Of a stretch of 60,539 bases of DNA, positions 1,256-54,341 are shown piece by piece. A program made the translations under genes and the position numbers. The notes below the pieces were generated by a model, which had not been told where the DNA came from, did not search any database, and saw nothing but the letters and a program-made list of their open reading frames with translations. Origin of the DNA: a virus. Its lineage: Duplodnaviria; Caudoviricetes. The stretch is from positions 1 to 60,539 of IMG/VR virus record IMGVR_UViG_3300044667_000059; one strand, given 5' to 3'. How positions within the stretch are numbered: position 1 is the first letter of the stretch; each line of letters begins with the position of its first letter.

Positions 1256-2155
1256 ATGTCTCAGCCGCTCGATGAGCTGCGCGGCAGCTTCCACCGACAC
1301 CTGCGGGCCGAAGGCCGCGCGGATCGCACCATCAAGATCTACGACCAGGCGGTCCGGTTCTTCGCCGACTGGCTCGTTGCGCAGGGCCGCGCACCGGTCA
1401 AGGACGAGTTGACCCGCGACGCGATCGTCGAGTGGCTGGCTAGCCTGGCTGAACGCGGCCAGGAGCCGGGCACCCGGCAGATGCGCCACCGCGGCCTGTA
1501 CCGGTTCTGCGGCTGGCTGGTCGACGAAGAGGAGCTACCCAAGCACCCGATGGCCGGCCTGCGCCAGCCCGAGCCCCGGGAGCGGCCGGTGGACGTGGTC
1601 ACCGACGCCGAACTGGCGGCGCTGCTCAAGGCGTGCACCGGGAAGCGGTTCTACGACCGGCGCGACGAGGTGGTGATCCGGCTGCTCAACGACACCGGCT
1701 GCCGGGTATCCGAGATCTGCGGCCTGGATCTGGAGGTTGTGGATCTGGAACAGATGCTCGCGCCGGTGACGGGGAAGGGAGGCAAGGTCCGGATCGTGTA
1801 TTGGGGTGCGCGGACGGCGCGGGCGTTGGACCGGTACCTGCGGATGCGGGCGAAGCACCGGCACGCGACGCACCCGCGGCTGCTGCTGGGCGAGCGCGGA
1901 CCGCTGACGCCGGACGGGGTGCGGGAGTTGGTGCGGGTGCGCGCGGAGGCGGCCGGGATCGGGCACAAGCATCCACATCAGCTGCGGCACACGTGGGCGG
2001 CGGATCTGAAGGCGCAGGGGATGAGCGAGGATTACCTGGAGCGGCTGGGTGGGTGGGCGAAGGGCTCGGTGATGACGCGGCGGTATGGAGAGGCTGCGGC
2101 GGATCGGAACGCGGCGTTGATGGTGCGTCGGTTGAATCGTGGCGATCGGGTCTGA
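1256..2155 (+). CDS. int: Tyrosine recombinase / phage integrase
   Basis: TGCRVSE (R), GKGGK (K), HPHQLRH (HxxR), RRYG (Y); SAM-like N-terminal region. Confidence 0.93.
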   Translation: MSQPLDELRGSFHRHLRAEGRADRTIKIYDQAVRFFADWLVAQGRAPVKDELTRDAIVEWLASLAERGQEPGTRQMRHRGLYRFCGWLVDEEELPKHPMAGLRQPEPRERPVDVVTDAELAALLKACTGKRFYDRRDEVVIRLLNDTGCRVSEICGLDLEVVDLEQMLAPVTGKGGKVRIVYWGARTARALDRYLRMRAKHRHATHPRLLLGERGPLTPDGVRELVRVRAEAAGIGHKHPHQLRHTWAADLKAQGMSEDYLERLGGWAKGSVMTRRYGEAAADRNAALMVRRLNRGDRV

Positions 2156-5324: not shown

Positions 5325-5506
5325 TCCGTGACCTGGTTCTCGTCGCCCGGATCATCGTCCTGGGCACCCGAGACACCGTGGCCGACCTGGTTGGGCGGGC
5401 CGCGCTGTTCGGGATCGCCGTCAGCGCGTTCGTGGCTGCGGTGGCTGCTGCTCGTCTCGGTGGGTGGGTGGTCGGCGTGTACCGGCCAGCAGGGAGGGCC
5501 GCCTGA
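5321..5506 (+). CDS. Small membrane protein
   Basis: GTGA overlap; hydrophobic segment. Confidence 0.55.
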   Translation: MIRDLVLVARIIVLGTRDTVADLVGRAALFGIAVSAFVAAVAAARLGGWVVGVYRPAGRAA

Positions 5507-5631
5507 TGGGCAAGGTCACCCGCCGCGATATCGAGAAGGCCGACAAAGAGGCCAACGAGGAACCCGACCGGTACTGCCCGACCTGCCGCTGCTGGTACCC
5601 GGCCTCGTCCACCGCACACGAGGGGCACTGA
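5506..5631 (+). CDS. Small Cys/His protein (41 aa)
   Basis: MGKVTRRDIEK...CPTC...H; TGATG coupling. Confidence 0.55.
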   Translation: MGKVTRRDIEKADKEANEEPDRYCPTCRCWYPASSTAHEGH

Positions 5632-5632
5632 C

Positions 5633-5821
5633 ATGGACAGTCGAGTCGTGCCGCTCTACGGCACCCCGTGCCCCGACTGTGGCCTGCCGGCCCGCCAGGT
5701 AGTGATCTTCGCCGACAACCTCAAGGTCGTCCACCACGCCCGACCCGACCACCTGCCGGCCGGTGTGCTCCCGCCGACGCCCTGCCGCATCGGGCCGATC
5801 ACGCAGGCGGTGACCCAGTGA
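5633..5821 (+). CDS. Small zinc-ribbon protein
   Basis: CPDC...HH...C. Confidence 0.55.
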   Translation: MDSRVVPLYGTPCPDCGLPARQVVIFADNLKVVHHARPDHLPAGVLPPTPCRIGPITQAVTQ

Positions 5822-5922
5822 GCCACCTCTACGCCGCTGCCTCGCTCGTCCTGCTCGTCGCCGCGCTCTACGCGTTCCGCGTGGCATGGCGCAACTACCG
5901 CCAAGACCGGGGGACATCATGA
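5818..5922 (+). CDS. Small single-TM protein
   Basis: Start/stop overlaps on both sides. Confidence 0.5.
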   Translation: MSHLYAAASLVLLVAALYAFRVAWRNYRQDRGTS

Positions 5923-21852: not shown

Positions 21853-22104
21853 GTGGCTGATCTGGAGACCGAGATCCGGCAACGGCTCGCTGCGCACGCG
21901 CAGGACGAAGGGTTCCTGCGGCACTCCGAAGCCGTGGCCGCTCTCCGTGCCGTGCTGGACCTGCACCCGACATCCGATGTCGACGGTCTGATCGTGAACG
22001 GCAGACCGGCACGCGAGTGCAAATCGTGCGGGCTGCTGCTGGGCGAGCAACGATGCCGAACGGTCCTCGCTGTGGCCCGTGAGCTGGGCGTGGAGACGAC
22101 ATGA
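21853..22104 (+). CDS. Hypothetical protein
   Basis: GGAGG RBS; ALRAVLDLH...CKSC...CRTV. Confidence 0.65.
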   Translation: MADLETEIRQRLAAHAQDEGFLRHSEAVAALRAVLDLHPTSDVDGLIVNGRPARECKSCGLLLGEQRCRTVLAVARELGVETT

Positions 22105-22259
22105 CCGCCGAGCACGGACGCTGCGACAGCGTCTACCACCTGCCACTTCCTCTCGACGTCCGATGCACGGACACGCGTGGCCACGACGGCGAGCACAGGT
22201 CCGGGTGGATGAGCTGGGCCGACGACAACGAACACGCCCGCCGGTTGGAGCCATCGTGA
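22101..22259 (+). CDS. Small Cys/His protein (52 aa)
   Basis: ATGA overlap; C....GHDGEH. Confidence 0.5.
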   Translation: MTAEHGRCDSVYHLPLPLDVRCTDTRGHDGEHRSGWMSWADDNEHARRLEPS

Positions 22260-22308
22260 TCTCCCTGCCGCCCGTCACCCGCCCCACCCGCAACCACAGG
22301 AGACACGC

Positions 22309-22542
22309 ATGACCATGACCGCCGACGAAGTGATGTTGATGTCCATCCTGGTCCACAAGCTCGGCGGAGCCGTGGACATCACCGAACGCGAACTGCGCGA
22401 GTTCGACCGCGCCACCACGCTCGTGACGATGGTCGGGCCGATGGACCGTCCCGGCGTGGGCGTCCGCCTCGAACTGGACGAGCCAGCCATCGTTGTCGAT
22501 GCCGAGCGGGAGCCGGCCCGAGCGATCGAGGCTGCGCCGTGA
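22309..22542 (+). CDS. Hypothetical protein
   Basis: AGGAG RBS. Confidence 0.65.
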   Translation: MTMTADEVMLMSILVHKLGGAVDITERELREFDRATTLVTMVGPMDRPGVGVRLELDEPAIVVDAEREPARAIEAAP

Positions 22543-22687
22543 CGTCGGACCCGGACGGGCCCGACCGGGAACGGGTCAGCGGGCGGCTGGAGCTGGAACC
22601 GGCGGTGATCTACGACCAGCTACGGGACGAGTTTGCATCCGCAAGTGCCACGTTTTCGCAGGTGGCACCCAAACCGAATGGGACATC

Positions 22688-23101
22688 ATGCGACTCTGGC
22701 CAGTAAACCGGACAGAGCTGGAGACCACCCCACCAGCTCCACCGCGCACCTACGAGTTCAAGAGCCGCAACCGCCGCCACACCTGGAAGGTCACTGGCGG
22801 CTACGACCCGGACCAGGACGGCGACGAGCCACGCTGGGGACGCGTCGCCATCGAATGCACCACCTGCGGCGAGACACGCCGCGTCGGCCGTGACGCGTAT
22901 GCGGAGAACGCCATCGGCCTGCGCTACGGCTGCCTGCGCACCTCGACGTCCCCACAGTTCGAACGCGGCGACCTCGTGGCCCTCCCCGATGGGCGGCTCG
23001 ACGAGTTCGTTGCCTACCTGTCCGACGACATGGCCGTCACCTACAACGCTGGTGGCCACAGCCACGAAGAACGAGTGGAAGACCTAAAGGTGTACCGATG
23101 A
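22688..23101 (+). CDS. Hypothetical protein
   Basis: ATGA overlap with next gene; CTTC; start uncertain. Confidence 0.55.
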   Translation: MRLWPVNRTELETTPPAPPRTYEFKSRNRRHTWKVTGGYDPDQDGDEPRWGRVAIECTTCGETRRVGRDAYAENAIGLRYGCLRTSTSPQFERGDLVALPDGRLDEFVAYLSDDMAVTYNAGGHSHEERVEDLKVYR

Positions 23102-23640
23102 AGCGAATCATCCCTACCCTGCTCGCCGGCGCGGCACTCCTCGCCGGCTGCGCTACAACTTCCGTTGGAAGTTCGAGCGCACCGTCCAACGCAATCGCCG
23201 TCACCGTTGGCTCCTGCCACGCCGGCAGCGACCACGGCCAACCCCTCCCCGACCCGAGGTGCACACCGGGAGCGGTCAACCCGGCGGTGACGCAGGCGAA
23301 CATCGCGACAACGATCTGCCGGCGTGGCTGGACGAAGACCGTTCGGCCACCCCAGAGCTACACCGAGACCCTGAAGCGCCAGCAGATCACCCAGTACGGC
23401 TATTCGGACAAGCGGATGGGATCGTACGAAGAGGATCATCTTGTAAGTCTGGAGCTCGGCGGCGCCCCGTCCGACCCGGCCAACCTATGGCCCGAACCGG
23501 GCGCGTCACCCAACCCGAAAGATGCGGTGGAGGGGGCTCTCAACCGCGCCATCTGTTCGCACCGGGTCACGTTGGCTGCCGCCCAGCAGGCCATCGCCAG
23601 CGACTGGACCACCGCCGAAGCGCGCCTCGGGATCGGCTGA
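23098..23640 (+). CDS. Secreted lipoprotein with HNH-like (His-Me) nuclease motif
   Basis: Signal peptide with lipobox LAGC; YEEDHLVSLELGG...NLWPE...KDAVE. Confidence 0.75.
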   Translation: MKRIIPTLLAGAALLAGCATTSVGSSSAPSNAIAVTVGSCHAGSDHGQPLPDPRCTPGAVNPAVTQANIATTICRRGWTKTVRPPQSYTETLKRQQITQYGYSDKRMGSYEEDHLVSLELGGAPSDPANLWPEPGASPNPKDAVEGALNRAICSHRVTLAAAQQAIASDWTTAEARLGIG

Positions 23641-23643
23641 CCG

Positions 23644-23871
23644 TCACTCCTCGGTGTCGGTGGTGTGGTCGTCCTCGTCGTAGATGGTGCGGCCGTGCGC
23701 GCGGCCCCAGGCGACCACTTCGGTTCGCAGCCAGAACACGCCGGCAGTCAGGACATCGAAGGGCGCGGGGAAGTCGGGCTCGCGGGTGAGGTTCTGGGCC
23801 TGCGTCTTGCCGACGCCGAACATCTTCTCGATCTCGGCGCGTCCGACAAGTCTCCCCACGATCGGCAGCAT
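23644..23871 (-). CDS. AlpA/excisionase-like HTH regulator of the transfer module
   Basis: LVGRAEIEKMFGV...DFPAP...GVFWLRTEVVAW. Confidence 0.8.
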   Translation of the reverse strand: MLPIVGRLVGRAEIEKMFGVGKTQAQNLTREPDFPAPFDVLTAGVFWLRTEVVAWGRAHGRTIYDEDDHTTDTEE

Positions 23872-23927
23872 ATGAGCACACTACTGGTCGATCTGCCACT
23901 GTTCGATCGACCAGCTAGAGTGTCGCC
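23872..23927. promoter_or_regulatory. Divergent leaderless promoters with inverted-repeat operator
   Basis: IR CTGGTCGATC (23884-23893) / GATCGACCAG (23905-23914); -10-like TAGAGT (+) and TAGTGT (-), each 6 nt before an ATG. Confidence 0.65.
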
Positions 23928-24680
23928 ATGTCCACCACGCCAGTCCTCGACCGGGCGCGCCAGGCGATCGCCCAGGCGAAAGCCGACGGCGCGCCGGCGC
24001 CAGGCCGGGCGAAGCTGGCGAAACTACTGGACATCAGCCAGTACGAGGCGCGAGTAGCCCTGGAGAGCCTGGCGGCCGAGCAGACGCCCACCGGCACCAG
24101 CACGCCGCCCGTGGCGGACACGCCCGCCAGTGAGCCCGCCACGCCACCAGAACCGGCCGCCAGCGAGGCAGCCAGTCCGCCGCCACCTTCCCCGGGCGAC
24201 GGGGTGGCCGCCGCACCACCCGCCACGTCGGCCGCCAGCGAGACGCCAGGGCGCCGGGGCTGGCCGGTGATCCTGCTCGCCGCGCCCGCGTTCGTCGCCA
24301 TCTGGTCCGGCTGGGTCGGTGTCGGTGCCCTCACCGGCTTCGGACCGGTTCACCTGCTGCCGGGTATCGCGGACCGGTTCACGATCAACTCGGCGATCAC
24401 CCTGCCGATCGGGCTGGAGACCTACGCCGCCTACGCGCTACGGGTGTGGCTGGCCAGCGTTGGCGGCTGGCGGGCGCGGCGGTTCGCCAAGCGGTCCGCC
24501 ATCACCTCGCTCGTGCTCGGCGCCCTGGGTCAGGTCGCGTACCACCTGATGACCGCCGCCCGGGTCACGGTCGCACCGTGGCCGATCACCACAGTCGTGG
24601 CGTGCCTGCCCGTGGTCGTCCTCGGGTTCGGCGCCGCCCTGCATCACCTCGTCGCAGAAGACCAGCGGAGCCGGCCGTGA
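23928..24680 (+). CDS. SpdA/DUF2637-like spread membrane protein with N-terminal HTH
   Basis: PGRAKLAKLLDISQYEAR HTH, Pro-rich linker, four TM segments (FVAIWSGWVG...ITLPIGLETYAAYAL); directly before traB. Confidence 0.72.
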   Translation: MSTTPVLDRARQAIAQAKADGAPAPGRAKLAKLLDISQYEARVALESLAAEQTPTGTSTPPVADTPASEPATPPEPAASEAASPPPPSPGDGVAAAPPATSAASETPGRRGWPVILLAAPAFVAIWSGWVGVGALTGFGPVHLLPGIADRFTINSAITLPIGLETYAAYALRVWLASVGGWRARRFAKRSAITSLVLGALGQVAYHLMTAARVTVAPWPITTVVACLPVVVLGFGAALHHLVAEDQRSRP

Positions 24681-26785
24681 CCGGAGAAGTCGCGAAGCCC
24701 AGCGTCAAGGACATCGACGAGTCGGATGCGGAGCTCGTCGACGGTGAGCTGGTGGACGACGAGCCGCCAGCCAGCGACCGGGCGCCGGCGTGGCTACCCC
24801 GCCAGGACCGCGCCACCCGCCGCCACCCGCGCGCCCGCGTGGCCGCCCTGTTCGCCATCCGCCACGCCATCCTCGTCGCCCAGGGTCACCAGTCGTGGGC
24901 GCAGCGGATGTTGGCGGCCGCCACCCACGGGCACGCCCGGGAGCAGATCGAGCAGGCGAAGGCCGCTGGCGACCACGAGCGCCTGGCTGCGTGGATCGAC
25001 CGGCTCCAGCAGCTCCGCGAGAAACGCCAGGCGCGGATCAAGGCCCTGCCGCACACCGTGCTGGCGGCCGCCCGGATGACGTGCGCCGCTGTCCTGGCGT
25101 TCGCTGCACTGCTGCTGGTGATCGGGATCGTCGCCAAGGTCGGCATGGGCCGCGCCGGGTGGACAGGGTGGTGGCATGGTGTCGCCACCGCTGGCCACGT
25201 GGTGAGCGTCCTGGTGAGTGTTGGCGCCCTGGCGGTCGTGTATGGCGCCATCCCCGGGTGGCTGGCATTGGCCTGGCGGGAAGGCCGGCGGCGCGGGCGG
25301 CCGATCACGTGGGCCATGGCACCCAAGCAGGTCGAGGCGCAGGGCTCGATCATCACGCCGAGCGGGATCGCCGAGGCGCTGAACCACCTGCCGATCGCCG
25401 AACTCAAGCGGGAGATCAAGAAGGGCTGGACGGTGAAGTTCGTCGTGCCACCGGTCAAGGTCGGCGACCGCGGCTACGAAACGATCTTCGAACTGCCGCT
25501 CGGCGTGACCGTCGACATGATCGCCGACGCCCGTCCCGTCCTGGCCCGCAACCTGGCCCGTTCGACGATGGAGGTGTGGCCCACCCAGGAGGAGGACCAC
25601 AACGGCATCTGCCACCTCTGGGTCGCCAACCCCGGGGCCACCAAGCGCCCAGCACCGCCGTATCCGCTGCTCACCAGCGGTGTCGTCGATGTGTTCGCGG
25701 GCGTCCCGTGTGGCGTGTCGCAGCGGGGCGATGTGATCGCGCCGCCGCTGTTCGAAGCGAACTTCGTGTTCGGCGGCCTGCCCGGTCAGGGCAAGTCCAA
25801 CGCGGTCCGGGTGGTCATGCTCGGCGCCGCCCTCGATCCGATCGCGGAGCTGTGGGTGTTCGTTTTCGCAGGTAACGGCGACTTCGACGTCTACCAGCCT
25901 CGCCTGGCCCGCTACCACCGCGGCACCGGTCCCGAGGTGATCGACGCGGCTATCAGCAGTCTGGACGAGCTGTACAACGAGATCGGTCGCCGCGAACAAC
26001 GCATCGCCGAACTGGGGGTCAAGAAGGTCTCGCGTGCGGTTGCCGAGAAACACCCGGACCTGCGGCCGATTGTCGCCGCATTCTCCGAGGTCCACGGCCT
26101 GTTCGGCGCCGGGAAGGCCGGCAAGGCGGCGGCCGAGACGGCGGTGGATGTGGTCAAGCGGGGTCGCAAGGTCGGGATCATCCTGCTGTTCGACACGCAG
26201 TCAGCCCGCAAGGACGCGATTCCCCTGGCGCTGGTCGAGAACGTGTCCAGTAACACCTGCTTCTACGTGAAGACGTGGCGTAACAACGACGGCTTCCTGG
26301 GTGACGGCAGCTTCCAGGCTGGCATCCGGGCGACCGAGCTGCGGTACAACGTGGACCGCGGTACGAGCGTGTCGACGGGTTTTTCGGACGAGGCGTTCGA
26401 AATCCTCCGCTGGTACTACATCGCCGCCGATGACACCGGCTACGACCAGGCCGCAGAGGTCATTGCGCGGGCGATGAAGCGGGTGCACAGGTCGGTCCCG
26501 GTAGGTGGTCGTGGCGGCGTGTTGGCTCCGGAGCGTCGGGACCTGTTCGAGGACCTGGACGAGGTGCTCGACGGAGACCGGGTGAACGCGCCGGATGTGG
26601 CGGCGTGGCTGCGGGAACTGGCCCCGGACTGGGGTCCGTATCGAGCGCTGACGGGTGTCGATCTGAAGCGGCAGTTGGAGGCTGCCGGGATCAAGGTCCC
26701 GACGACCGGCAACAAGTTGTGGATCGATCCGCTGTCGGTTCGCAGGGTCTTGGCGGCTCGCTCGACAGCGGATCTGGACGAGTGA
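24677..26785 (+). CDS. traB: TraB-type FtsK/SpoIIIE conjugative dsDNA translocase
   Basis: GTGA coupling; two N-terminal TM helices; GGLPGQGKS Walker A; AAFSEVH Walker B region; KRGRKVGI...TQ; C-terminal wHTH-like domain. Confidence 0.88.
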   Translation: MTGEVAKPSVKDIDESDAELVDGELVDDEPPASDRAPAWLPRQDRATRRHPRARVAALFAIRHAILVAQGHQSWAQRMLAAATHGHAREQIEQAKAAGDHERLAAWIDRLQQLREKRQARIKALPHTVLAAARMTCAAVLAFAALLLVIGIVAKVGMGRAGWTGWWHGVATAGHVVSVLVSVGALAVVYGAIPGWLALAWREGRRRGRPITWAMAPKQVEAQGSIITPSGIAEALNHLPIAELKREIKKGWTVKFVVPPVKVGDRGYETIFELPLGVTVDMIADARPVLARNLARSTMEVWPTQEEDHNGICHLWVANPGATKRPAPPYPLLTSGVVDVFAGVPCGVSQRGDVIAPPLFEANFVFGGLPGQGKSNAVRVVMLGAALDPIAELWVFVFAGNGDFDVYQPRLARYHRGTGPEVIDAAISSLDELYNEIGRREQRIAELGVKKVSRAVAEKHPDLRPIVAAFSEVHGLFGAGKAGKAAAETAVDVVKRGRKVGIILLFDTQSARKDAIPLALVENVSSNTCFYVKTWRNNDGFLGDGSFQAGIRATELRYNVDRGTSVSTGFSDEAFEILRWYYIAADDTGYDQAAEVIARAMKRVHRSVPVGGRGGVLAPERRDLFEDLDEVLDGDRVNAPDVAAWLRELAPDWGPYRALTGVDLKRQLEAAGIKVPTTGNKLWIDPLSVRRVLAARSTADLDE

Positions 26786-26936
26786 GCCCGCCATGATCGA
26801 GTTAGGTTTCTCACTCCCCACCTCACTGGCGGTCTGGCCTGCGGAAAGTGAGGTCAGTGAGGCGAGTGAGGTCACGGTTTTCGGGGGTCTGGAACCCCCG
26901 GTTTTCACGGTCTGGCGATGGTCGTCGGACCTCACT
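26781..26936. repeat. clt-like cluster of AGTGAG(G) repeats (putative TraB recognition sites)
   Basis: AGTGAGG at 26847, 26856, 26865 (9-bp period), AGTGAG at 26781; inverted copies at 26810, 26821, 26930; immediately 3' of traB. Confidence 0.7.
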
Positions 26937-27029
26937 TTTGAGCGGAAGGTGATCTTCGTGATCTGCAAGAAATGCGGCGAGCCGATTTGGGGTCCGATCA
27001 GTGACCACAACTCCTGAAAGGAGGGACCG

Positions 27030-27182
27030 ATGCCCTCGGTGATCTCCAATGCGGTCGAGTTCCGGCCGCTGCGCTGGTTCGCCGCGGTCGCGCTGCTGTG
27101 CGCGTTCGCGTTCGCGGGTGGCGTCTGGTACCAGGCCAGCCATGCCGTGGGGCCGCAGCCGGCGTGCATGGCACCACGCTGA
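27030..27182 (+). CDS. Small single-TM protein (50 aa)
   Basis: AAAGGAGG RBS; WFAAVALLCAFAFAGGVWY. Confidence 0.6.
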   Translation: MPSVISNAVEFRPLRWFAAVALLCAFAFAGGVWYQASHAVGPQPACMAPR

Positions 27183-27184
27183 GG

Positions 27185-27290
27185 GTGTCCATAAACGAGC
27201 GTCTGTTGACGCCGTAGCTTCGCGGCGCGTCCGCTCCGGTCAGCCGTGTTCCACATGCCGTGTCCGTAATCAACGTTTCATGATCACACC
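27185..27290. promoter_or_regulatory. res-like site upstream of the serine resolvase
   Basis: AT-richer gap with GTGTCCRTAA half-sites at 27185 and 27260. Confidence 0.5.
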
Positions 27291-27301
27291 ACTACCCGTT
27301 T

Positions 27302-27889
27302 GTGAGGCACATCTTGGGGCTCATCGGCTACGCCCGGGTCTCCACCCAGGACCAGAACCTCGACGCGCAACTCGACGCCTTGGACCGCGCCGGCTGCGAC
27401 CGCGTGTTCACCGAGAAGATCTCGGGCAAACTGGAGAGCCGACCCGAACTGGACAAGGCACTGGACTACCTCCGCCCCAACGATGTCCTGGTCGTCACCA
27501 AACTGGACCGGCTCAGCCGCTCCCTACGCCACCTGTTGAACCTGTCGGCCCAGCTCGCCGAGATGGGCGTCGGCCTACGCGTGCTGGACCAGGGCATCGA
27601 CACCACCACCCCAGGTGGCCGGCTGTACTTCTCCATCGTCGGTGCCATCGCCGAGTTCGAACGTGACCTGCTCTCGCAGCGGACCCGGGAGGGGCTGGCC
27701 GCGGCCCGTGCCCGCGGCCGGAAGGGTGGCCGACCGCCGGCACTGTCACCGGACAAGGTGGCTGTCGCCCGCGAGATGATCGACAGGGGTGACCGGACGA
27801 TGGCGCAGATCGCTCATGTCCTGGGCTGCTCCCGGGCGACGTTGTACCGCGTGTTCGGCAGCGACACGACGCGTAGTCAGCCCATGTGA
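27302..27889 (+). CDS. Small serine recombinase (resolvase/invertase family)
   Basis: IGYARVST catalytic Ser, VVTKLDRLSRS, AEFER..LSQRT, GRKGGRP, C-terminal HTH SRATLYR; start may be TTG 27314. Confidence 0.93.
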   Translation: MRHILGLIGYARVSTQDQNLDAQLDALDRAGCDRVFTEKISGKLESRPELDKALDYLRPNDVLVVTKLDRLSRSLRHLLNLSAQLAEMGVGLRVLDQGIDTTTPGGRLYFSIVGAIAEFERDLLSQRTREGLAAARARGRKGGRPPALSPDKVAVAREMIDRGDRTMAQIAHVLGCSRATLYRVFGSDTTRSQPM

Positions 27890-28221
27890 CCGACGGCCAC
27901 GAACACCAACACGACCAGCAACACCGCTACAGGGATCCCCACGAAGATCGTCACCAGCAGTGTGCGTGTCCGGGCCTGTGATGCCATCGACTCCTCGTGC
28001 TGGCGGTGCGCCTGCCACGCCTGCGCCCGCTCCACCTCCGTCATCCGCGCCCACACCACCGGCAGGATCCCCGGCGGGACCTGCGCCTGCGGCGGCCGAC
28101 GGGCGGCGGCGGCGCGTTGCTGCTCGGCTACTGCCGCCCAGTGCGCCTGCGACGCCTGCTGCTCTGCCCACTGCGATTTCGTCAGATACCAGGGCTTGCG
28201 GCTGGGCTGGGCGGTGGTCAT
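27877..28221 (-). CDS. Membrane-anchored hypothetical protein
   Basis: GAGG RBS; Q/A-rich body with C-terminal TM. Confidence 0.65.
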   Translation of the reverse strand: MTTAQPSRKPWYLTKSQWAEQQASQAHWAAVAEQQRAAAARRPPQAQVPPGILPVVWARMTEVERAQAWQAHRQHEESMASQARTRTLLVTIFVGIPVAVLLVVLVFVAVGHMG

Positions 28222-28386
28222 GGCGGGGACCTCACGTGGTGGTCGTGGTGGTGTGGTCGTCCGTGACTATCGCACCGGTCGCCCGACGGGTTACGACGTG
28301 TCCGGTTTCTGTCACCCAACCGGCATAAACTACCCAGCCCGGCACGCCGCAACCACCTACCAGCGATAACCGGTTACCCTGTCCTC

Positions 28387-29616
28387 GTGCCGCTGACACA
28401 GATCACGGTCATCTACGGCGTGAACGGACTCGTCGACCCGGGAACAGGGCAACCAGCAACCGGGTCCATCACCCTGCAACCCGTTGCGGAAACACCCGGT
28501 TCGACCTACACGGTCATCGCGAAATCGGTGACGTTCGCGCTGGTCAACGGGCAAATCAACCCAGCCGCGAACACGCTATACACCAACGGGCAAGCCTTCC
28601 AAGCGTTGATCACCGAAGAAGCCGTCGGCACCGACAACCCACCGCCGTATGTGGTCAGCGTGCCTGCGTCCGGCACCCTGGACCTGTCCACCGCGCCACG
28701 CGGCACCCTCGCTGTCACCACACCGCTGTACATCCCCGTGTCGCTGGTCACCACGGTCGGTGACCTGATCGTCGGCACTGGGAACGCCACCGTGGCCCGT
28801 CTACCGGTCGGCGCGAACGGCCTGGTGCTCACTGCGGACTCCACGAAGCCGGATGGTCTCGCGTGGGAAGCCGCCGGCGCGGGCACCGTCACCTCCGTAG
28901 CGGCAGGCGACGGCACGATCGTCATCGGCGGCACACCCACCGTGACACCCACGGTGCGCGTCGGGACGATCACCGAGTCCCAGGTCACCAACCTGACCAC
29001 CGATCTCGCTGGGAAGATCCCCGCCAGCACCGTCACGACGAAAGGTGACGTGCTCGCCGCAACCGGCTCGGCCGCACTCACCCGGCTCGGTGTCGGCTCG
29101 GACGGGCAAGTCCTCACCGCCGCATCCGGCCAAGCCACCGGCCTGACTTGGCAGACGCCCGCCGTCCCGAACATCCAGTCCGGGTTCATCACCTCCGGCA
29201 ACGTCTCCGCCGTCAATACGGGCGGCGCGTGGGCGGCGATCGCAGGCATGTCCAAGCCGATCCCTGCGGTCGTCGGCGAGCGCCTCACGGCCACGTTCAA
29301 CTTCTCCACCTTGAACATGGGTGCCTCGTACTTCGACGTGGGTGTGATCGGGTCCGGCAGCGCGATCGTCCGGCAGCTCTACGCGCCTGTGACTCCACCG
29401 ACGCAACCGGACTCCACCTACGAGGGCATGCCGGCCGCGATCCAGGACCCCAATGTCCACGGCGTCAGCTCCGAACCGCCCTACTTCACCGCCACATCCA
29501 CCGACATCGTCGGCGGCAACGTCACGTTCTGCCTGCTGTGGAAGAGCGGCGGCACCGGGACGTTCCTGTGCAACGCGGCCGTCCCCGTGTCGTACGTGCT
29601 GAAGAACTTCCACTGA
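28387..29616 (+). CDS. Virion fibre/minor structural protein
   Basis: T/G/V-rich; duplicated VTTxGD(L/V)...TG...RLxVGxxGxVLTA units typical of fibre shafts. Confidence 0.7.
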   Translation: MPLTQITVIYGVNGLVDPGTGQPATGSITLQPVAETPGSTYTVIAKSVTFALVNGQINPAANTLYTNGQAFQALITEEAVGTDNPPPYVVSVPASGTLDLSTAPRGTLAVTTPLYIPVSLVTTVGDLIVGTGNATVARLPVGANGLVLTADSTKPDGLAWEAAGAGTVTSVAAGDGTIVIGGTPTVTPTVRVGTITESQVTNLTTDLAGKIPASTVTTKGDVLAATGSAALTRLGVGSDGQVLTAASGQATGLTWQTPAVPNIQSGFITSGNVSAVNTGGAWAAIAGMSKPIPAVVGERLTATFNFSTLNMGASYFDVGVIGSGSAIVRQLYAPVTPPTQPDSTYEGMPAAIQDPNVHGVSSEPPYFTATSTDIVGGNVTFCLLWKSGGTGTFLCNAAVPVSYVLKNFH

Positions 29617-29630: not shown

Positions 29631-29677
29631 GGTTGAGGTCTGGCCACCCCGGTCAGCGCACACGTCGGGAGGTGACC

Positions 29678-30163
29678 TTGCCGCCACGCATCCCCGATAC
29701 CACCCGGCAAGCCATCCTCACCGACATCCAAGCGAAAGCCGGCAGCACGCGGACCATCGCCGCCAAACACGGCGTCAGCGACGCCACCGTCCGCAAGATC
29801 GCCACCGAAGCCGGAATCACCGACGCCTTCGCGCGCGAGCAGACCGAAAAGGCTACGCGCGCGCGGGTGGCGGACATGAAGGCGATGCGGGCGGCGATTG
29901 CGGCTGAGTTGCTGGGTGATGTGCTGCGGTTGCGGGAGCGGGCGTGGGAGCCGTACACGGTGGCGATGTCGGCGGGTGGCAAGGACGGTGGTATCGAGTT
30001 GGTGACGCTGGAGCGGCCGCCGTTGGGTGAGGTACGGAACGCGTACACGGCGATCGGGATCGCGTTGGATAAGTCGCTGCGGTTGGAGCAGCACGATGCG
30101 GATGTGCAGGGGTTGGCGGCGGTGGATGCGTGGTTGCGGGACATGATGGGTTCGAGTGACTGA
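29678..30163 (+). CDS. terS: Terminase small subunit (HTH)
   Basis: GGAGGTG RBS before TTG; STRTIAAKHGVSDATVRKIA HTH; TGATG coupling to terL. Confidence 0.75.
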   Translation: MPPRIPDTTRQAILTDIQAKAGSTRTIAAKHGVSDATVRKIATEAGITDAFAREQTEKATRARVADMKAMRAAIAAELLGDVLRLRERAWEPYTVAMSAGGKDGGIELVTLERPPLGEVRNAYTAIGIALDKSLRLEQHDADVQGLAAVDAWLRDMMGSSD

Positions 30164-31476
30164 TGGATCTGCGTCCGCTGGTGGGGAAGCAGCGGGAGTC
30201 GGCGCGGCTCGCCACGGCGCGGGGGAACCTCTGGGAAGGCGCGGTCCGCTCGTCCAAGACCATCTCGTCGATCATGGTGTGGTTGCGCTACGTCCGGACC
30301 GGACCGCCGGGGAACCTGCTGATGGTGGGGAAGACCGAGCGGACGTTGAAGCGGAACATCATCGATCCGATCACGGAGATGGTGGGTGCTCGGCGGTGCA
30401 GGTACCGAGCAGGTGCCGGTGAGCTGGACCTGTTCGGTCGGCGGATCTACACCGCTGGGGCGAACGACGAGCGCGCAGCGGACAAGATCAAGGGCATGAC
30501 GTTGGCTGGTGCGTACTGTGACGAGGTCACGACGTATCCGCAGTCGTTCTTCGCGATGCTCGGCACCCGCCTGTCGGTGGAGGGTAGCCAGTGGTTCGGA
30601 ACAACGAACCCGGCCGCACCGACGCACTGGTTGAAACGGGACTATCTGGACCGGGCGAAGTTGCATCTGCAACGGGACGGCACGGTGGTCGAGCACCACG
30701 AGGGTGGCCGGCTGGATCTGCACCGGTTCACGTTCCAACTGGACGACAACCCCACTCTCTCGCCGGCGTACGTCGCGGCGTTGAAGGCCGAGTACGTGGG
30801 CCTGTTCTACCGCCGGTACGTGCTCGGTGAGTGGGTGCTGGCCGAGGGCGCTGTCTACGACATGTGGGACCCAGCGCGGCATGTAGTCACCTGGGACCAG
30901 GTCCCGATCATCCACAGGTGGCTGTCGGTGGGTGTGGACTACGGGACGGTGAACCCGTTCGACGCGATCCTGTTCGGCATCGGCGTCGACCACGCCATCT
31001 ACGGGATCTCGGAGTACCGGCACGACTCCCGCCGTGCCCGCCGGCAACTGACCGACCCGGAGCTGTCGATGGAGATGCGGACGTGGCTGACCCGTGTCCG
31101 CTACCCACGGTCGCAGTTGCGGGGCGTCAAACCGGAGGTGGTGTGCGTCGACCCGTCCGCAGCCAGCTTCAAGACGCAGCTGTTCCGTGACGGCCTGCCG
31201 GCGATGAACGCGAACAACGACGTGTTGAACGGCATCCGCACCGTGTCCGCGTTGCTCGCGGCGGACAAGCTGAAGATCGTCGGCTCGGATTGTCCGTGGC
31301 TGGTCGACGAGATCCCCGGATACGCGTGGGACGACCGGGCAGCGGAGAAGGGTGAGGACGCGGTACTGAAGGTCAACGACCACTCGTGCGACGGCGGCCG
31401 GTACGGGTTGCATTCGACGCGGTCTCGGTGGCGTGGCGAGGTGCTACCAGCCCTGTCCGACAGTCTGGCAGCGTAA
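30163..31476 (+). CDS. terL: Terminase large subunit (PBSX/headful-type)
   Basis: EGAVRSSKT, AYCDEVT, GTTNP, VGVDYG, VDPSA, DHSCDGGRY. Confidence 0.95.
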   Translation: MDLRPLVGKQRESARLATARGNLWEGAVRSSKTISSIMVWLRYVRTGPPGNLLMVGKTERTLKRNIIDPITEMVGARRCRYRAGAGELDLFGRRIYTAGANDERAADKIKGMTLAGAYCDEVTTYPQSFFAMLGTRLSVEGSQWFGTTNPAAPTHWLKRDYLDRAKLHLQRDGTVVEHHEGGRLDLHRFTFQLDDNPTLSPAYVAALKAEYVGLFYRRYVLGEWVLAEGAVYDMWDPARHVVTWDQVPIIHRWLSVGVDYGTVNPFDAILFGIGVDHAIYGISEYRHDSRRARRQLTDPELSMEMRTWLTRVRYPRSQLRGVKPEVVCVDPSAASFKTQLFRDGLPAMNANNDVLNGIRTVSALLAADKLKIVGSDCPWLVDEIPGYAWDDRAAEKGEDAVLKVNDHSCDGGRYGLHSTRSRWRGEVLPALSDSLAA

Positions 31477-31536
31477 CCTCCACCTAAGACGAGGTTCGGG
31501 AGGACGGATGGGCGACGACGGCGAAGACCGGCAGGA

Positions 31537-31863
31537 GTGGAAGCCGTGACCGACGAGGTGTTGACGGAGATCCTGGCCGAGCTGCGGGCGTTGAACGCGA
31601 AGGTCCCCGAACAACCGAAGCCACCCCAGCCGAAGACGCGTGTCTCCCGGCCGGGCCGTGTGTTCTCCAACGGCCAGCTCATCCCGATGGACGTGGACCT
31701 CGTCATCGCCGGCGCGCAGCGGTGGATCCGCATCCGCGTCGACGGCGAACCGAGCGACTTGTGGACTCCGCGTGATGTCGCTGGCCCGGAGTTGTCGTCG
31801 AACGAGTTGCTGTCGAGGGCTGGGCATGTGGTCGAGGTACCCGCACCCGAGGAGCCCGAGTGA
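31537..31863 (+). CDS. Hypothetical protein between terL and portal
   Basis: ORF ends in GTGA overlap with the portal. Confidence 0.55.
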   Translation: MEAVTDEVLTEILAELRALNAKVPEQPKPPQPKTRVSRPGRVFSNGQLIPMDVDLVIAGAQRWIRIRVDGEPSDLWTPRDVAGPELSSNELLSRAGHVVEVPAPEEPE

Positions 31864-33719
31864 CCCGTTCGATTCCGGGTGTCATCGACCCCAACTACGG
31901 TCCCGGCCGCGGCATGGCGACGAACATCACCTCCTCCGGTGCGCCCGTCGACAACCGGATGATGACCCGGCTTCCTGTGGTCAACCAGCCGTGGCCGCCG
32001 CCGGACTACTCACCGGTGTCGTACATGCACCGCATTTGGGACGCTTGGTGGACGGGTGACCGGCAGCGCCTCGCTTGGGTGTACTACAACCTAGGCGCGA
32101 ACAGCCCGGTTGGCAGGAGCTTCTTCTCCAGCACCGGTGAGCCCGGTCAGCCGTCCCCGCGACCAGGCCAGTTTCGTGGCGGTCTCCTCGGTTCCATCGA
32201 ATACAGCTTCTGGGGCACACCAACCCCACCAGGTGAGAAGCGCACCCGCAGTCACGTGCCGATCGCCGGTGACATCGCCCAAACCTCGGCGTCGCTGCTG
32301 TTCTCCAAGCCGCCGGTCATCAGGTCCAGCCTTGACGGCAAAGCGGCGGCGATCAACAACGCGTGGTTCGACACGCTGATCGACGACCCCTTCCATCGTC
32401 GACTGCTGGAAGCCGCCGAGATGGGTGCCGCGCTCGGCGGGAACTACCTGCGGGTCGTGTGGGACACCGAGGTCCAGGAGAAGCCGTGGGTGGTGTCGGT
32501 GCCGGCCGACGTCGGGGTGCCGCTGTTCTCCTACGACCAGCTCAAGGCTGTGACCTTCTGGGCGGTCCTGGAAGACAACGGCGACGACGTCCTGCGGCAT
32601 CTCGAAATGCACGTGCCGGCGCAGAACGCCATCTTCCACGGCTTGTACCACGGCAACCAGACCGATCTCGGTGAGCAGATCCCGATGGACGCGCACCCCA
32701 CGACCGCGGCGATCAAGGCGCGGATCAACGCGGTCAGCCCGGAAGCGGTCGGGGATACGATCGTGTTCCCGGACCAGCCGTTGGACGCCGCGTCCGTCGT
32801 GTACATCCCGAACCTCACGCCGAACAGGATCTTCAGGGACTTGGGTCCGCAGGCGTGGCCGATCGGTCGCAGCGACTTCTCCGGTGTGGAGAACCTGATG
32901 GACAATCTCGACGAGGTCTACTCGTCGTGGATCCGTGACATCAGGTTGGCGAAGTCCCGCATCCTCGTGCCACCGGAGTACCTCGACAACATCGGGCGCG
33001 GGAAGGGCGCGGTGTGGGACCCGGAACGGCAGGTGTACTCGCCGCTGAACATGCTGCACGACGACAACGGCCCGAACAACGGGATCACGTTGAACCAGTT
33101 CAACATCCGGTGGCAGGAGCACAAGGCCACCTGCGATGACCTGATCTCCCGGATCGTGGAGCAGGCCGGGTACTCCAGCCAGACGTTCGGTGAGTACGCG
33201 CAGGGCGGTGGGGCACTGACCGCGACGGAGATCAACATGCGGGAGCGTCTCACGATGATGACCCGCGCCAAGAAAATCAACACGTGGCGGTCCGAACTCG
33301 CCCGCATTATCTACAGCCTCATGGTGATCGAGGTGCAGAACTTCGGCAACACGCTCATCACCCCGGAACTGCCGAACATCGAGTTCGTGGAGACCATCGG
33401 CCCGGACATCACCGTGCTGGCGCAGACCGCCGCGCAACTGGAAGCCGCCGGTGCGGCATCGAAGGAAACCCTGGTGCAGTTGGTGCACCCGGATTGGTCG
33501 CCGGAACAGGTGAACAAGGAAGTCACGAGGATCTTCTCGGAGACGGGTGCCGAGCTGGCCCAGCATGCCCGGATCGCGTTGTCCGCGCCGATGGGTGAGG
33601 ACCTCGGACAGGAGATCGACCAGTTGGCGCAGACACAGCCGGTGGCGCCGGTGCGTGGCCCAGTGCCGGGCGACAACCCGAACGAACCGTCCACCGGTGG
33701 GGCGGACCCGAATGCCTGA
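31860..33719 (+). CDS. Portal protein (SPP1/A118-like)
   Basis: Position; IAQTSASLLF, YIPN, GRSDF, LDEVYSSW, TATEI, HPDW..EQV..EV. Confidence 0.92.
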   Translation: MTRSIPGVIDPNYGPGRGMATNITSSGAPVDNRMMTRLPVVNQPWPPPDYSPVSYMHRIWDAWWTGDRQRLAWVYYNLGANSPVGRSFFSSTGEPGQPSPRPGQFRGGLLGSIEYSFWGTPTPPGEKRTRSHVPIAGDIAQTSASLLFSKPPVIRSSLDGKAAAINNAWFDTLIDDPFHRRLLEAAEMGAALGGNYLRVVWDTEVQEKPWVVSVPADVGVPLFSYDQLKAVTFWAVLEDNGDDVLRHLEMHVPAQNAIFHGLYHGNQTDLGEQIPMDAHPTTAAIKARINAVSPEAVGDTIVFPDQPLDAASVVYIPNLTPNRIFRDLGPQAWPIGRSDFSGVENLMDNLDEVYSSWIRDIRLAKSRILVPPEYLDNIGRGKGAVWDPERQVYSPLNMLHDDNGPNNGITLNQFNIRWQEHKATCDDLISRIVEQAGYSSQTFGEYAQGGGALTATEINMRERLTMMTRAKKINTWRSELARIIYSLMVIEVQNFGNTLITPELPNIEFVETIGPDITVLAQTAAQLEAAGAASKETLVQLVHPDWSPEQVNKEVTRIFSETGAELAQHARIALSAPMGEDLGQEIDQLAQTQPVAPVRGPVPGDNPNEPSTGGADPNA

Positions 33720-51840: not shown

Positions 51841-52471
51841 GCGGGTCGTTGAGCACGCTGCGGTTGCCGCGCGTGACCCGAAGTGGCGTCGCCTCGCCAC
51901 CGTGTTCGCTGGGCTGATGGTGGTGGCCACGGTCGCGGCGGTTGTGTTGGCGTTCTTGAACTTCGCGGAGGCGCAACGCCTGGCGCAACAGCAGGCCGAT
52001 GCGGCGCTTGCGGCGCAGCAGTTGGCGCAGCAGGTGCGGTCGATGGGTGGCGTGCCGGCTGTGTCGCCGCCGGCGCCGGTGACTGGCCCGGTGGGTCCTG
52101 CTGGGGCGGCTGGCCAGAACGGCGCACCAGGTCCCCCTGGACCGCAGGGCCCGGAGGGTCCGCCTGGGCCGACGGGCCCGACTGGCCCGGTTGGGTTGGC
52201 TGGGCCGGCCGGCGCGAATGGTGTGAACGGCCAGCCTGGCGTGGATGGTCCCAGTGGCCCTGCTGGGCCGTCCGGTGTGCAGGGGCCTGCTGGGCCGGCT
52301 GGCCCGCAGGGGGCACCTGGCCCGACTGGTCCCGCAGGGCAGGACGGTAGGCCGCCGTCGGGTTGGTCGTGGACGGACAAGTTCGGCACGACGTACACGT
52401 GCACCCGCGACAACACGGATGACTCGAATCCGACGTATGCCTGTACGGCGACGAAAGGACCTCTGGGATGA
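51830..52471 (+). CDS. Membrane-anchored collagen-like protein
   Basis: TM helix, coiled coil, long Gly-X-Y run, C-terminal YTC...YAC. Confidence 0.85.
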
Positions 52472-53493
52472 CGACCCCTACCCGCACGCCCGGCCGGTAC
52501 GGCCGCAAGCCGAACGACCCCACACGGGACCGTGTTTGCCTCACTGCGGCGCACGTTCCCGCGTCCTACTCGCCGCCAGCCACCGTGGACCGCTACTCAG
52601 CGGTGCCGGCCGCGTCGTGGGGCATGGACGGTAACGACTCGGTCGGCGATTGCACGTGCGCCGATGTGGACCACGAGGTGAAGGCGGCACAGGTCGCGGC
52701 CGGCAACCCGCAAGTGCAGTCCACGGCGGCCGAGGTGCTCGCGGCGTACTCGGCGATCACCGGCTACAACCCGGACGACCCGTCCACGGATCAGGGCGCG
52801 GAGATGCAGGCCGTGCGGGACTATTGGCGCACGACTGGGTTCACGCTCGGCGGGACCGTGCACAAGGTGGTGTTGTTCGCGGAGCTGCCGTGCCAGGACA
52901 CCACGACGGTGCGGTGGGCATTGGACCAGTTCGGCACGGTCGGTGTCGGGGTGAACCTGCCGGCCGCTGCGCAGCAGCAGTTCGCGGACGGGCAGCCGTG
53001 GGATGTGGTCGCGGACGACGGCGGGATCGACGGTGGCCACGCGGTCGCCCTGGTGGGCTACGACACCGACTACGCGTACGTGCTGACGTGGGGTCAGGTG
53101 CAGCGGGCGACGTGGGCATGGTGGGCCCGCTACGTCGAGGAGTGCTGGACCACGTTGGACGAGGACTTCGTCAACACCGCCTCGGGCAAGGACGAGTTGG
53201 GTGGGACCCTGTATGACCTCGGCGCGCAGTTCGAGAGGGTGACCGGCCAGCCCAATCCGTTTCCGGCGCCACAGCCTAGTCCAGCTCCTGTGCCTGTTCC
53301 TTCGCCGACTCCTGAACCGGTGCCGCAGCCTGTTCCGCCGTCACCCACACCGGGGCCGGCGCCGGACACCGATCCGGTCGATCTCGCGTTGGTGGCCGTG
53401 GCGGGGCCGTGGGCGAACGAGGAGCACCTGACCCACACTGCTCGCGCGGTCGCGCGGGCGATCCGTACGTGGCGCCAGAGCAAGGGCTTGTGA
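52468..53493 (+). CDS. Papain-like cysteine peptidase
   Basis: [11 protein letters not shown] (Cys), [11 protein letters not shown] (His), LTWG; Pro-rich linker and short C-terminal domain. Confidence 0.75.
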
Positions 53494-53502
53494 GGTGGTC
53501 GC

Positions 53503-54330: not shown

Positions 54331-54341
54331 AGGAGCCACCC

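Follow-up and report, generated by a model that had tools for sequence, protein, structure and literature searches.

The window considered here is the whole of the IMG/VR virus record IMGVR_UViG_3300044667_000059, a stretch of 60,539 bp, and the window TraB is the TraB protein encoded there. Between the early genes of this phage genome and its terminase genes lies a cassette with a membrane DNA translocase of the TraB/Tra type, a membrane protein encoded directly upstream of it, an array of short repeats that resembles clt, the cis-acting site bound by TraB, and a divergently transcribed regulator. The identity of these parts is highly probable. The wider proposition, in which identity and function are taken together, is that they form a captured DNA-transfer cassette of the type found in the integrative and conjugative elements of actinomycetes (AICEs) and that this cassette moves phage DNA; we regard it as evenly balanced. 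The features of the cassette are the following:

23644-23871, minus strand: AlpA/Xis-like helix-turn-helix (HTH) protein of 75 amino acids (aa), from Pfam Phage_AlpA and phrog_66
23884-23914: inverted repeat CTGGTCGATC/GATCGACCAG, with arms at 23884-23893 and 23905-23914, a candidate operator
23928-24680, plus strand: DUF2637-like membrane protein of 250 aa, with transmembrane (TM) segments and homologues upstream of traB
24677-26785, plus strand: TraB/Tra-type membrane double-stranded DNA (dsDNA) translocase of 702 aa, from Pfam, PHROGs, Foldseek and AICE homology
26780-26940: clt-like array of 8-bp repeats in both orientations, consensus (G)AGT(G/T)AGG, starting at the traB stop

In the window TraB, a coiled region at the N terminus is followed by two TM helices, then by the FtsK-like motor and finally by a C-terminal domain of approximately 80 aa that is conserved. 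The hydrophobic segments that would anchor it in the membrane, at residues 127-161 and 168-200 by hydropathy, are helical in the AlphaFold2 model, and the Walker A motif of the motor domain, GGLPGQGKSN, is invariant in 28 sequences. The Pfam match to FtsK_SpoIIIE (PF01580) is barely over its cut-off (24.1 bits against 24), phrog_1358 is matched at 1e-14, and NCBIfam gave no match for the window TraB or its neighbours. The model, built from 28 homologues, has a mean predicted local distance difference test (pLDDT) score of 72.7, and Foldseek placed it next to FtsK motor domains (E approximately 1e-13), then the clostridial conjugation coupling protein TcpA and then EssC/EccC. Residues 623-697, in a domain conserved in 36 sequences, are modelled at a pLDDT of approximately 90 in the order helix-strand-helix-helix-strand-strand-helix, and it is solely by this secondary-structure order in the model that the C-terminal domain may be called winged HTH-like. 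The GC content at third codon positions (GC3) is 0.84 over the longer frame 24446-26785 that contains the 702-codon open reading frame (ORF).

Of 8000 candidates scored in the family search, 283 proteins passed at E <= 1e-5, with named members from Lentzea, Pseudonocardia, Amycolatopsis and Actinomadura. Scans of viral and genome contigs with a single protein missed close relatives and the 28-sequence alignment was needed; with it, 55 representative-genome loci were fetched, and Pfam was run on 131 neighbouring ORFs of 28 loci (loci are given below by L numbers). With the TraB of a Lentzea albidocapillata AICE (L028), the window TraB shares 57% identity across 689 aa; in that AICE, traB adjoins RepAM (DUF3631, 8e-64) and Int. 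The nearest relatives come from Lentzea, Saccharothrix, Actinosynnema and Kutzneria, where their genes are flanked by DUF2637 on one side and by RepAM/Prim-Pol-Int genes on the other. For instance, the AICE order GntR, Nudix, DUF2637, TraB, RepAM (DUF3631), integrase is found in L028, L030, L031, L034, L036 and L047; around the closest homologues RepAM is replaced by Prim-Pol in L032 and L049 and by DUF3987 in L050. A tally with Rep seeds divided 56 genome loci into 21 AICE, three phage and 32 neither, which is a lower bound and partly circular because the seeds were taken from the same loci. In addition, 36 PLSDB records are matched by the window TraB (best E 5e-45); every one of them is from Actinomycetota, and small Streptomyces plasmids make up the majority. 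The match of the window TraB to a 12,652-bp S. venezuelae plasmid (NC_007431.1, which we take to be pSVH1) has an E of 6e-18. Homology to the Tra proteins of conjugative elements was found through these AICE and plasmid matches, among which, to our knowledge, no element has been experimentally characterised.

The TraB family profile retrieved no FtsK or EccC sequence from the PDB at E <= 0.01, and, judged by sequence and context, the window ATPase is an AICE/plasmid-type Tra protein and not a chromosomal FtsK or EccC. No match to the cassette or to TraB was found in 50,697 deposited phage records (megablast; tblastn at 1e-5). The closest JGI proteins (P0003 and P0004) are 58-61% identical and come from contigs of 52-55 kb, the loci of which were not recovered by the metagenome scan. 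A Nonomuraea match (H3) was set aside as an ordinary AICE, with TraB, Prim-Pol and Int beside gyrB, gyrA and dnaN and no virion genes in 41 kb.

The protein encoded directly upstream of TraB begins with a soluble part, continues with a Pro/Ala-rich linker and ends in a core of approximately four TM segments; those at 112-135 and 213-243 are clear by hydropathy, and two more between them are suggested by the alignment as read by eye. In L016 (phage context), L058 and L068, the ORF that immediately precedes traB encodes a product with 46-57% identity to it, and tblastn placed its homologues just upstream of traB in L047 (AICE), L053 and L076. DUF2637 is matched by eight of 12 aligned traB-upstream proteins, not including the window's own, which matches the L050 protein by phmmer at 4e-9; the latter is DUF2637 at 2.6e-10. 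These comparisons would support the name DUF2637-like TraB partner, of a divergent kind. A DUF2637-like gene directly upstream of traB is kept in both AICE and phage contexts, and in the window the partner-gene TGA overlaps the GTG start of traB in a GTGA at 24677-24680, read directly. The soluble HTH-like part is N-terminal in the window partner and C-terminal in most relatives (compared with L031, L036, L030 and L020), a difference that looks like a domain rearrangement around the same four-TM core. No account of a DUF2637 function was found in the titles and abstract openings of the literature that mentions it.

The repeat array is the third part of the cassette. AGTGAGG occurs 15 times in the window, five of these within 26821-26936 (116 bp), while 6.6 copies (standard deviation 2.6) are expected in the whole window and 15 were reached in none of 100 shuffles. 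With one degenerate position allowed, the repeats lie at -7+, 12+, 21-, 33-, 59+, 68+, 77+ and 142- from the traB stop, and two terminator-like hairpins are found inside the array. Across 74 loci, the word G[AG]GT[TG]AG has a mean of 3.08 copies between -100 and +400 bp relative to the traB stop, compared with 0.18 per 500 bp in the rest of the same loci, with at least three copies in 39 loci and at least four in 33; at least three are present in 14 of the 25 IMG/VR loci counted. This word was picked after viewing the top 7-mers, the control being the 17-fold contrast with each locus's own remainder. The array layouts of the AICEs L028, L030 and L032 are nearly superimposable (+13, -79, -96, +144, -153, -172), those of the phage-context loci L019 and L023 are very similar, and the layout of L037 resembles that of the window. 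The repeat word is mostly GAGTGAGG in the window and mostly GAGTTAGG or GGGTTAG in relatives; by eye, a 'TTNTGNVP' wing appears to go with GGGTTAG and a 'VPSTGNRYP' wing with GAGTTAG, with exceptions. The clt of pSVH1, pIJ101 and pJV1 contains direct 8-bp repeats that are read by the C terminus of the cognate TraB (PMC4447253, PMC3583192; papers given by PMC number are cited from extracts), and TraB binds these repeats and pumps dsDNA (PMC4447253). Short 8-bp repeats beside traB are present in the window on sequence grounds, and the cluster is a conserved clt-like array common to AICEs and phages.

The AlpA-like match of the divergent regulator is weak, with Pfam Phage_AlpA at an E of 0.0063 and 16.8 bits against a cut-off of 21, and phrog_66, 'excisionase and transcriptional regulator', at 1e-5. 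The 75-aa ORF has a GC3 of 0.89 and is transcribed divergently from the tra operon, and its product is a candidate Kor-like repressor or recombination directionality factor-like regulator. The arms of CTGGTCGATC/GATCGACCAG are 10 nt long, 100% complementary and 11 nt apart, within a divergent intergenic region of 56 bp. A scan of 22.8-29.7 kb for sigma-70-like promoters, which is uninformative for actinomycetes, found none. Directly left of the cassette, 23098-23640 encodes a predicted lipoprotein of 180 aa (signal peptide, Cys lipobox) without a family match.

Several of these features had been named by an earlier reading of the letters made without database searches (the sequence-only reading). 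The divergent AlpA-like regulator with an inverted-repeat operator lies where that reading had put it, with a weak AlpA match and a perfect 10-nt repeat, and the proposed membrane FtsK/SpoIIIE ATPase of approximately 700 aa is indeed in place, with 702 aa, two TM segments and a P-loop. The short-repeat cluster right after the traB stop was borne out by the five AGTGAGG copies in 116 bp and by the array kept in relatives. For the four-TM protein coupled by GTGA to the ATPase, the overlap is as described, with two TM segments clear by hydropathy and two seen by eye; in place of the label SpdA-like, which that reading had given to the protein, the homologues support DUF2637-like. No grouping of TraB with non-conjugative FtsK or EccC, the outcome that would have spoken against its naming, was seen in the AICE homology, the plasmid matches or the PDB profile search.

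The genome around the cassette is that of a tailed temperate phage. IMG/VR puts the record in its class of direct terminal repeats and gives a CheckV estimate of 78, and an exact 127-bp repeat was found at both window ends, so the assembly closes on itself. GC is approximately 0.67 overall, with a GC3 of 0.8-0.9 in coding frames. The gene map was drawn from Pfam and PHROGs scans of 94 ORFs, which recovered terL, portal, major capsid, tape measure, recombinase and regulators. The early genes encode an Xer-like tyrosine recombinase, an exonuclease, an ERF annealing protein and an HNH-helicase (Pfam/PHROGs), the replication genes a phage-type initiator (phrog_270) and a DnaC/IstB-like loader, followed by a long array of small genes. 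Among the late genes are those for a terS-like protein, terL, the portal, a MuF-like minor capsid protein, the major capsid and a tape measure that ends in a transglycosylase. The map further includes genes for a large tail protein (phrog_5313), for a protein with collagen repeats, for one with a P22-type antirepressor domain and for an XRE/DUF5753 regulator. The recombinase and the start of the late operon are located as follows:

1256-2155, plus strand: Xer-like tyrosine recombinase of 299 aa (Pfam Phage_integrase 2.6e-23)
29633-33719, plus strand: late operon start, with terS-like 29633-30163, terL 30163-31476, a small ORF and portal 31860-33719 (Terminase_6N 7e-11, SPP1_portal 5e-14, phrog_5536)

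The late operon begins 2.8 kb downstream of the window traB. The Xer-like protein is the sole tyrosine recombinase of the window and may serve in integration or in dimer resolution; the NCBIfam models XerC, XerD and XerA score 127-138.5 bits on it, under their cut-offs (XerC 138.5). A lower-GC region of 1.7 kb follows its gene, and a tRNA scan of the window found none, hence no hint of attP. The search for terL relatives in IMG/VR confirmed 186, of which 80 were kept; among deposited phages, the best terL matches are Streptomyces siphophages at approximately 48% identity. The closest structural relative is L095, with 84% identity in the portal and 72% in the capsid. The window is most likely the complete genome of a temperate siphophage, with a mycelial, Pseudonocardiaceae-like soil actinomycete as host.

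An AICE is defined by Int, Rep and Tra (Ghinet et al. 2011, PMC3218068). In the window no Rep stands beside Tra and Int as in an autonomous AICE: no Rep, Prim-Pol, relaxase, type IV secretion system or ParA family was found by Pfam among the 94 ORFs, and 10 AICE Rep/Prim-Pol seeds gave no match at E <= 1e-3 (RepSA, which is without a Pfam model, was not searched). As an AICE Rep is lacking and the replication genes are all phage-type, the window represents an entire tailed-phage genome and not an inserted autonomous AICE.

The linkage of the cassette to phage genes was compared with Logan contigs. Two runs (X1 and X2) hold the whole stretch; they are probably the source sample and possibly one data set filed twice, and their reads are not independent. 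One contig of 30,150 nt with a depth of 24.9 covers the window from 23,269 to beyond 33,000 with no differences and joins the cassette and the recombinase to terS, terL and the portal, and a contig of 4,925 nt with a depth of 24.7 covers early genes to 21,889. The join on the early side rests on an overlap of 371 bases with the lipoprotein-like gene (23098-23640), the sole early-side gene into which the 30,150-nt contig reaches, and on equal depth. Runs X3 and X5 hold short, diverged fragments only.

The sequence-only reading had likewise taken the window for a whole phage and not an autonomous inserted AICE, and the lack of Rep in the seed searches, the phage-type replication genes and the lack of primase-polymerase, relaxase and secretion system families among the 94 ORFs agree with it. 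It had also called the phage modules intact; this stood for the head, tail, replication and recombinase genes, while a lysis module was recognised by no search, whether Pfam, PHROGs or 12 endolysin seeds (0 of 12 matched). By eye, a Cys/His peptidase-like protein of 341 aa, a protein of 275 aa and a small two-TM ORF at 52468-54542 are a possible lysis cassette; none of them is in Pfam, and the 341-aa protein alone matched a PHROG, of unknown function. As for the chimera against which that reading had wanted a check, the late-side join was reproduced by the second assembler in the 30,150-nt contig, and 21,890-23,268 stayed unbridged by Logan contigs.

Other phages carry similar cassettes. A head, tail or lysis gene lies within 10 kb of traB in 19 of 26 IMG/VR loci, 18 of them with a PHROG-labelled head, tail or lysis gene and L016 with the large tail-associated phrog_5313 only, so phage-context TraB is a recurrent feature of actinophages; the co-occurrence of traB with phage genes, proposed earlier as a search, was thus found. 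In the usual phage layout recET, int, a DUF2637-like gene (often phrog_733) and traB are followed on the other strand by endolysin, tail and tape measure genes. Similarly to the window, traB lies upstream of terL in L007, L010, L130 and L148, the last two being terL relatives with traB 6-7 kb upstream of terL.

Among 47 TraBs placed on a quick IQ-TREE tree, one clade of 11 rows came entirely from IMG/VR phages (L013, L015, L017-L019, L021-L025 and L027), with a Shimodaira-Hasegawa-like approximate likelihood-ratio test (SH-aLRT) value of 100. In these loci, int, a DUF2637-like gene (phrog_733) and traB are typically followed by endolysin and tail genes on the opposite strand, and the clade suggests a long-term residence of the cassette in one phage group. 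A mixed clade holds nine phage and three AICE rows. A third group is dominated by AICEs, and within it the window belongs to a 13-row clade (SH-aLRT 100) as its sole phage member, together with nine AICE and three unlabelled rows. At least seven changes between phage and AICE context are needed on the tree, four of them forced by well-supported branches, and a single origin of all phage-borne TraB is rejected (log-likelihood difference 611, p 0.001 in the approximately unbiased (AU) test). Placing the window together with the 11-row phage clade is not rejected (log-likelihood difference 3.9, p 0.46, AU test) because the long stem of the phage clade can re-attach beside the window, and a separate capture is not shown by the tree. 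TraB-clt cassettes therefore appear, on tree and context, to have been exchanged repeatedly between AICEs and phages, with at least one old phage-only lineage.

To the right of the array lie further features, as follows:

27030-27182, plus strand: possible single-TM ORF of 50 aa, an uncertain gene (GC3 0.88; no homologue found)
27302-27889, plus strand: small serine recombinase of the resolvase/invertase type with a C-terminal HTH, 195 aa (Pfam Resolvase 1.7e-47, HTH_7 6.7e-10, phrog_125 DNA invertase 4e-70)
27877-28221, minus strand: ORF of 114 aa with a C-terminal TM helix, no family match in Pfam, PHROGs or NCBIfam
23659-23674 and 28247-28262: perfect 16-nt direct repeat, the only two copies in the window, bracketing a 4.6-kb block from the AlpA-like gene to the 114-aa ORF
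28387-29616, upstream of terS: tail-fibre-like gene of 409 aa, with weak PHROG tail-fibre and virion matches

The serine recombinase has no homologue at 161 other TraB loci (81 viral/genome contigs and 80 metagenome contigs) and is hence not part of the conserved cassette; the resolvase that the sequence-only reading had counted with the transfer genes is present and unambiguous, and its membership of a conserved cassette fell away. A recombinase homologue of 57% identity lies upstream of terL in L150. The 16-nt repeat may be an insertion scar or a low-complexity coincidence, and each copy falls at the 3' end of a minus-strand ORF, the two ORFs having similar Asp-Asp-His-Thr-Thr tails. The tail-fibre-like gene adjoins the invertase-type recombinase, and its L095 homologue (5489-5917) is on the opposite strand. 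An invertible tail-fibre segment under control of the recombinase was considered and dropped, as convincing inverted repeats were not found (the best has 21 nt at 81%).

A phage circle is thus present in the window, with a single clt-like array, a TraB that is intact and accompanied by its membrane partner, an operon under separate regulation and no further replicon, which makes the phage genome the only plausible substrate. By analogy with the integrative plasmids of actinomycetes, which pass dsDNA from hypha to hypha with such a pump and its docking repeats, TraB hexamers would be anchored in the hyphal membrane, the conserved C-terminal domain would bind the GAGT(G/T)AGG array, and the motor would pump the circular dsDNA phage genome, the sole replicon with this clt, into the next compartment of the hypha or into a mycelium in contact with it. 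Replication and recombinase genes of the phage itself would then establish the genome there, and the outcome would be a spread independent of virions and receptors. We infer the DNA binding, the pumping, the substrate and the timing of expression. That TraB moves the dsDNA of the phage from one hyphal compartment or mycelium to another is the best-supported reading, plausible but a little less than even in probability. A more general idea is put forward tentatively, namely that temperate phages of mycelial actinomycetes are dual-route elements, in which phage TraB-clt exports circular dsDNA across hyphal contacts or septa, with no need of virions or receptors, as an analogue of viral movement proteins and in which cassettes are repeatedly swapped with AICEs.

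Several points weigh against transfer of the phage by the cassette. Its regulator is not the usual GntR Kor, an Spd operon of the pSVH1 kind (spdB3-spd79-spdB2) was not found in the window, and a profile of the C-terminal domain, like that of the whole family, gave chance-level matches only against PDB sequences (E 0.02-3). Induction of a prophage normally kills the donor, so a non-lytic circular state must be assumed. Approximately 39 loci of terL relatives have at least 7 kb upstream and traB is present in two of them (hand count, among the 80 kept of 186), and L095 is without the cassette in its 6.5 kb upstream; the cassette is therefore sporadic in the phage lineage and dispensable for the phage. 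The terminal branch of the window TraB is 0.6 long against a median of 0.23, possibly from a relaxed or changed function. No long Logan contig is listed over 21,890-23,268, which is not evidence of a break. Finally, the 16-nt direct repeat and the serine recombinase bracket the block, so the cassette might serve itself and not the phage.

In that case, the 4.6-kb block would be a self-contained integrative mobilisable element inserted in the phage, which excises as a circle moved by TraB and clt or merely rides along, and this we consider unlikely. The perfect 16-nt repeat flanks the block with only two copies in the window, and an exact repeat of at least 16 nt arose in 10 of 300 Markov-2 simulations of the 5.6-kb region; yet it is of low complexity (GGT-rich) with similar near-repeats nearby, it is only marginally unusual, and the boundaries were set after it had been viewed. 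A resolvase-type recombinase and a Xis/AlpA-like gene lie within the block, GC is 0.70-0.715 over 23-26 kb against approximately 0.67 around, and the nearest structural relative (L095) is without the cassette. However, a 4.6-kb circle with no Rep could not replicate once excised, the combination of resolvase and TraB does not recur (0 of 161 other TraB loci), and no joint that skips 23,659-28,262 is among the listed contig joints. An origin of the locus in the assembly itself, by mis-joining of an AICE fragment to a phage contig, is highly improbable. It could draw on the metagenomic source of the record and on the break of Logan contigs at 21,890-23,268, left of the cassette, but the 30,150-nt contig of the second assembler extends from 23,269 into terL and portal with no differences (from non-independent reads), the depth of 24.9 there is close to the 24.7 of the early-gene contig, and traB is found upstream of terL also in L130, L148, L010 and L007.

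Other readings accept the cassette as part of the phage and differ on its use. TraB might be a gene for lysogenic conversion or for competition with incoming AICEs, plasmids and superinfecting phages, its repeats acting as decoy or regulator, or it might partition or resolve phage DNA in compartments and spores; we hold this to be rather unlikely. The FtsK/SpoIIIE-like phrog_1358 is filed under 'moron, auxiliary metabolic gene and host takeover', most IMG/VR relatives have traB among the accessory genes on the lysogeny side, with int to one side and the lysis/tail end to the other, a divergent gene with an operator-like repeat gives the cassette its own regulation, and papers on Streptomyces phages cite FtsK-like genes as possible replication or development factors (PMC11536984, PMC13587820). 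The closest homologues, however, are AICE transfer genes, and a cis-array is kept with phage TraB (at least three copies in 14 of 25 IMG/VR loci), as a transfer substrate needs and an exclusion protein alone does not. Alternatively, the cassette might be a decaying AICE fragment, a recent and functionless capture on its way to loss, which the long terminal branch of the window TraB, the sporadic presence among relatives and the lack of the Spd, Nudix and GntR genes of the donor AICE type would fit. Against this, the 702-codon ORF is intact with a GC3 of 0.84 (in the 24446-26785 frame), all residues of the motor that are invariant in the 28-way comparison are kept, the translational coupling and the repeat array are intact, and the 11-row phage-only TraB clade implies that such cassettes persist in phages; decay is quite improbable.

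If transfer of the phage genome by TraB and clt is the true function, receptors and virion production would not limit the host range and spread of temperate actinophages, and any estimate of how genes flow among antibiotic-producing actinomycetes would have to treat prophages, too, as conjugative elements. From the comparison come a 160-bp candidate clt and a conserved C-terminal domain as its candidate reader. Prophage-borne relatives are available in cultured genomes, namely L053 from an Amycolatopsis strain and the IMG/VR records derived from isolate genomes, such as L019-L021.

Among known systems, the pair pZL12/phiZL12 is reportedly the subject of a study by Zhong et al. in 2010 (J Bacteriol 192:3747), and pZL12 is, we assume, approximately 90 kb in size. 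No record of approximately 90 kb is among the 36 plasmid matches and no phage matched at 1e-5, so either the Tra lineages differ or pZL12 lies outside those collections. A plasmid-phage of Streptomyces, pZL12 depends on a major tra gene for its conjugal transfer (PMC3583192). It resembles the window in combining virion genes and tra in one element, and transfers via the major tra plus adjacent genes (PMC3583192, PMC4487206). It differs as a plasmid prophage with ParA and ParB (PMC4487206), whereas the window has an Xer-like recombinase. By Pfam, no ParA, ParB or plasmid RepA family is present in the window, which is hence no phage-plasmid of the pZL12 kind despite its virion genes and tra.

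The pMEA300-type AICEs of Pseudonocardiaceae consist of RepAM/DUF3631 or Prim-Pol, Int, GntR, Nudix and Tra (PMC2440964, PMC3218068). The window shares with them the DUF2637-like gene, TraB (54-58% identity) and the GAGT(T/G)AGG array after traB, in the same order, but its cassette is without adjoining Rep, Nudix, GntR and tRNA-type Int and lies inside a 60-kb virion-encoding genome. pSVH1 has a membrane-anchored, FtsK-like hexameric pump, the C terminus of which reads 8-bp clt repeats beside traB, and its traB is paired with a repressor (PMC4447253). The window resembles it in architecture, with a candidate reader domain at the C terminus of its TraB. Identity to pSVH1 is 27.7% over residues 267-610 (E 6e-18), the repeat word is another one, and the window regulator is AlpA-like and not GntR.

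Transfer of prophage DNA by conjugation is described for Phi1207.3 and for streptococcal phage-ICE tandems (ICE, integrative and conjugative element), but these belong to Firmicutes and are not TraB-based, and it is a separate ICE that contributes the conjugation genes of the tandems (PMC4260502, PMC13651849). New Streptomyces phage papers mention FtsK-like genes and, in the extracts, assign them no firm role (PMC11536984, PMC13587820). In the literature searched on TraB, prophages and conjugative phages, no survey of AICE-type TraB-clt cassettes in integrative actinophages was found. A role of actinophage Spd homologues in the spread of phage DNA was proposed by Thoma et al. (2015; PMC4447253); phiC31 and VWB, as cited there, have an SpdB2 homologue only, whereas the window has the motor TraB and a clt-like array. 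Since pZL12 and this proposal precede it, the idea of a conjugative phage is not new, and what the window adds is a new lineage, a pMEA-type AICE Tra in a siphophage with an Xer recombinase, together with comparative evidence, rather than a new principle.

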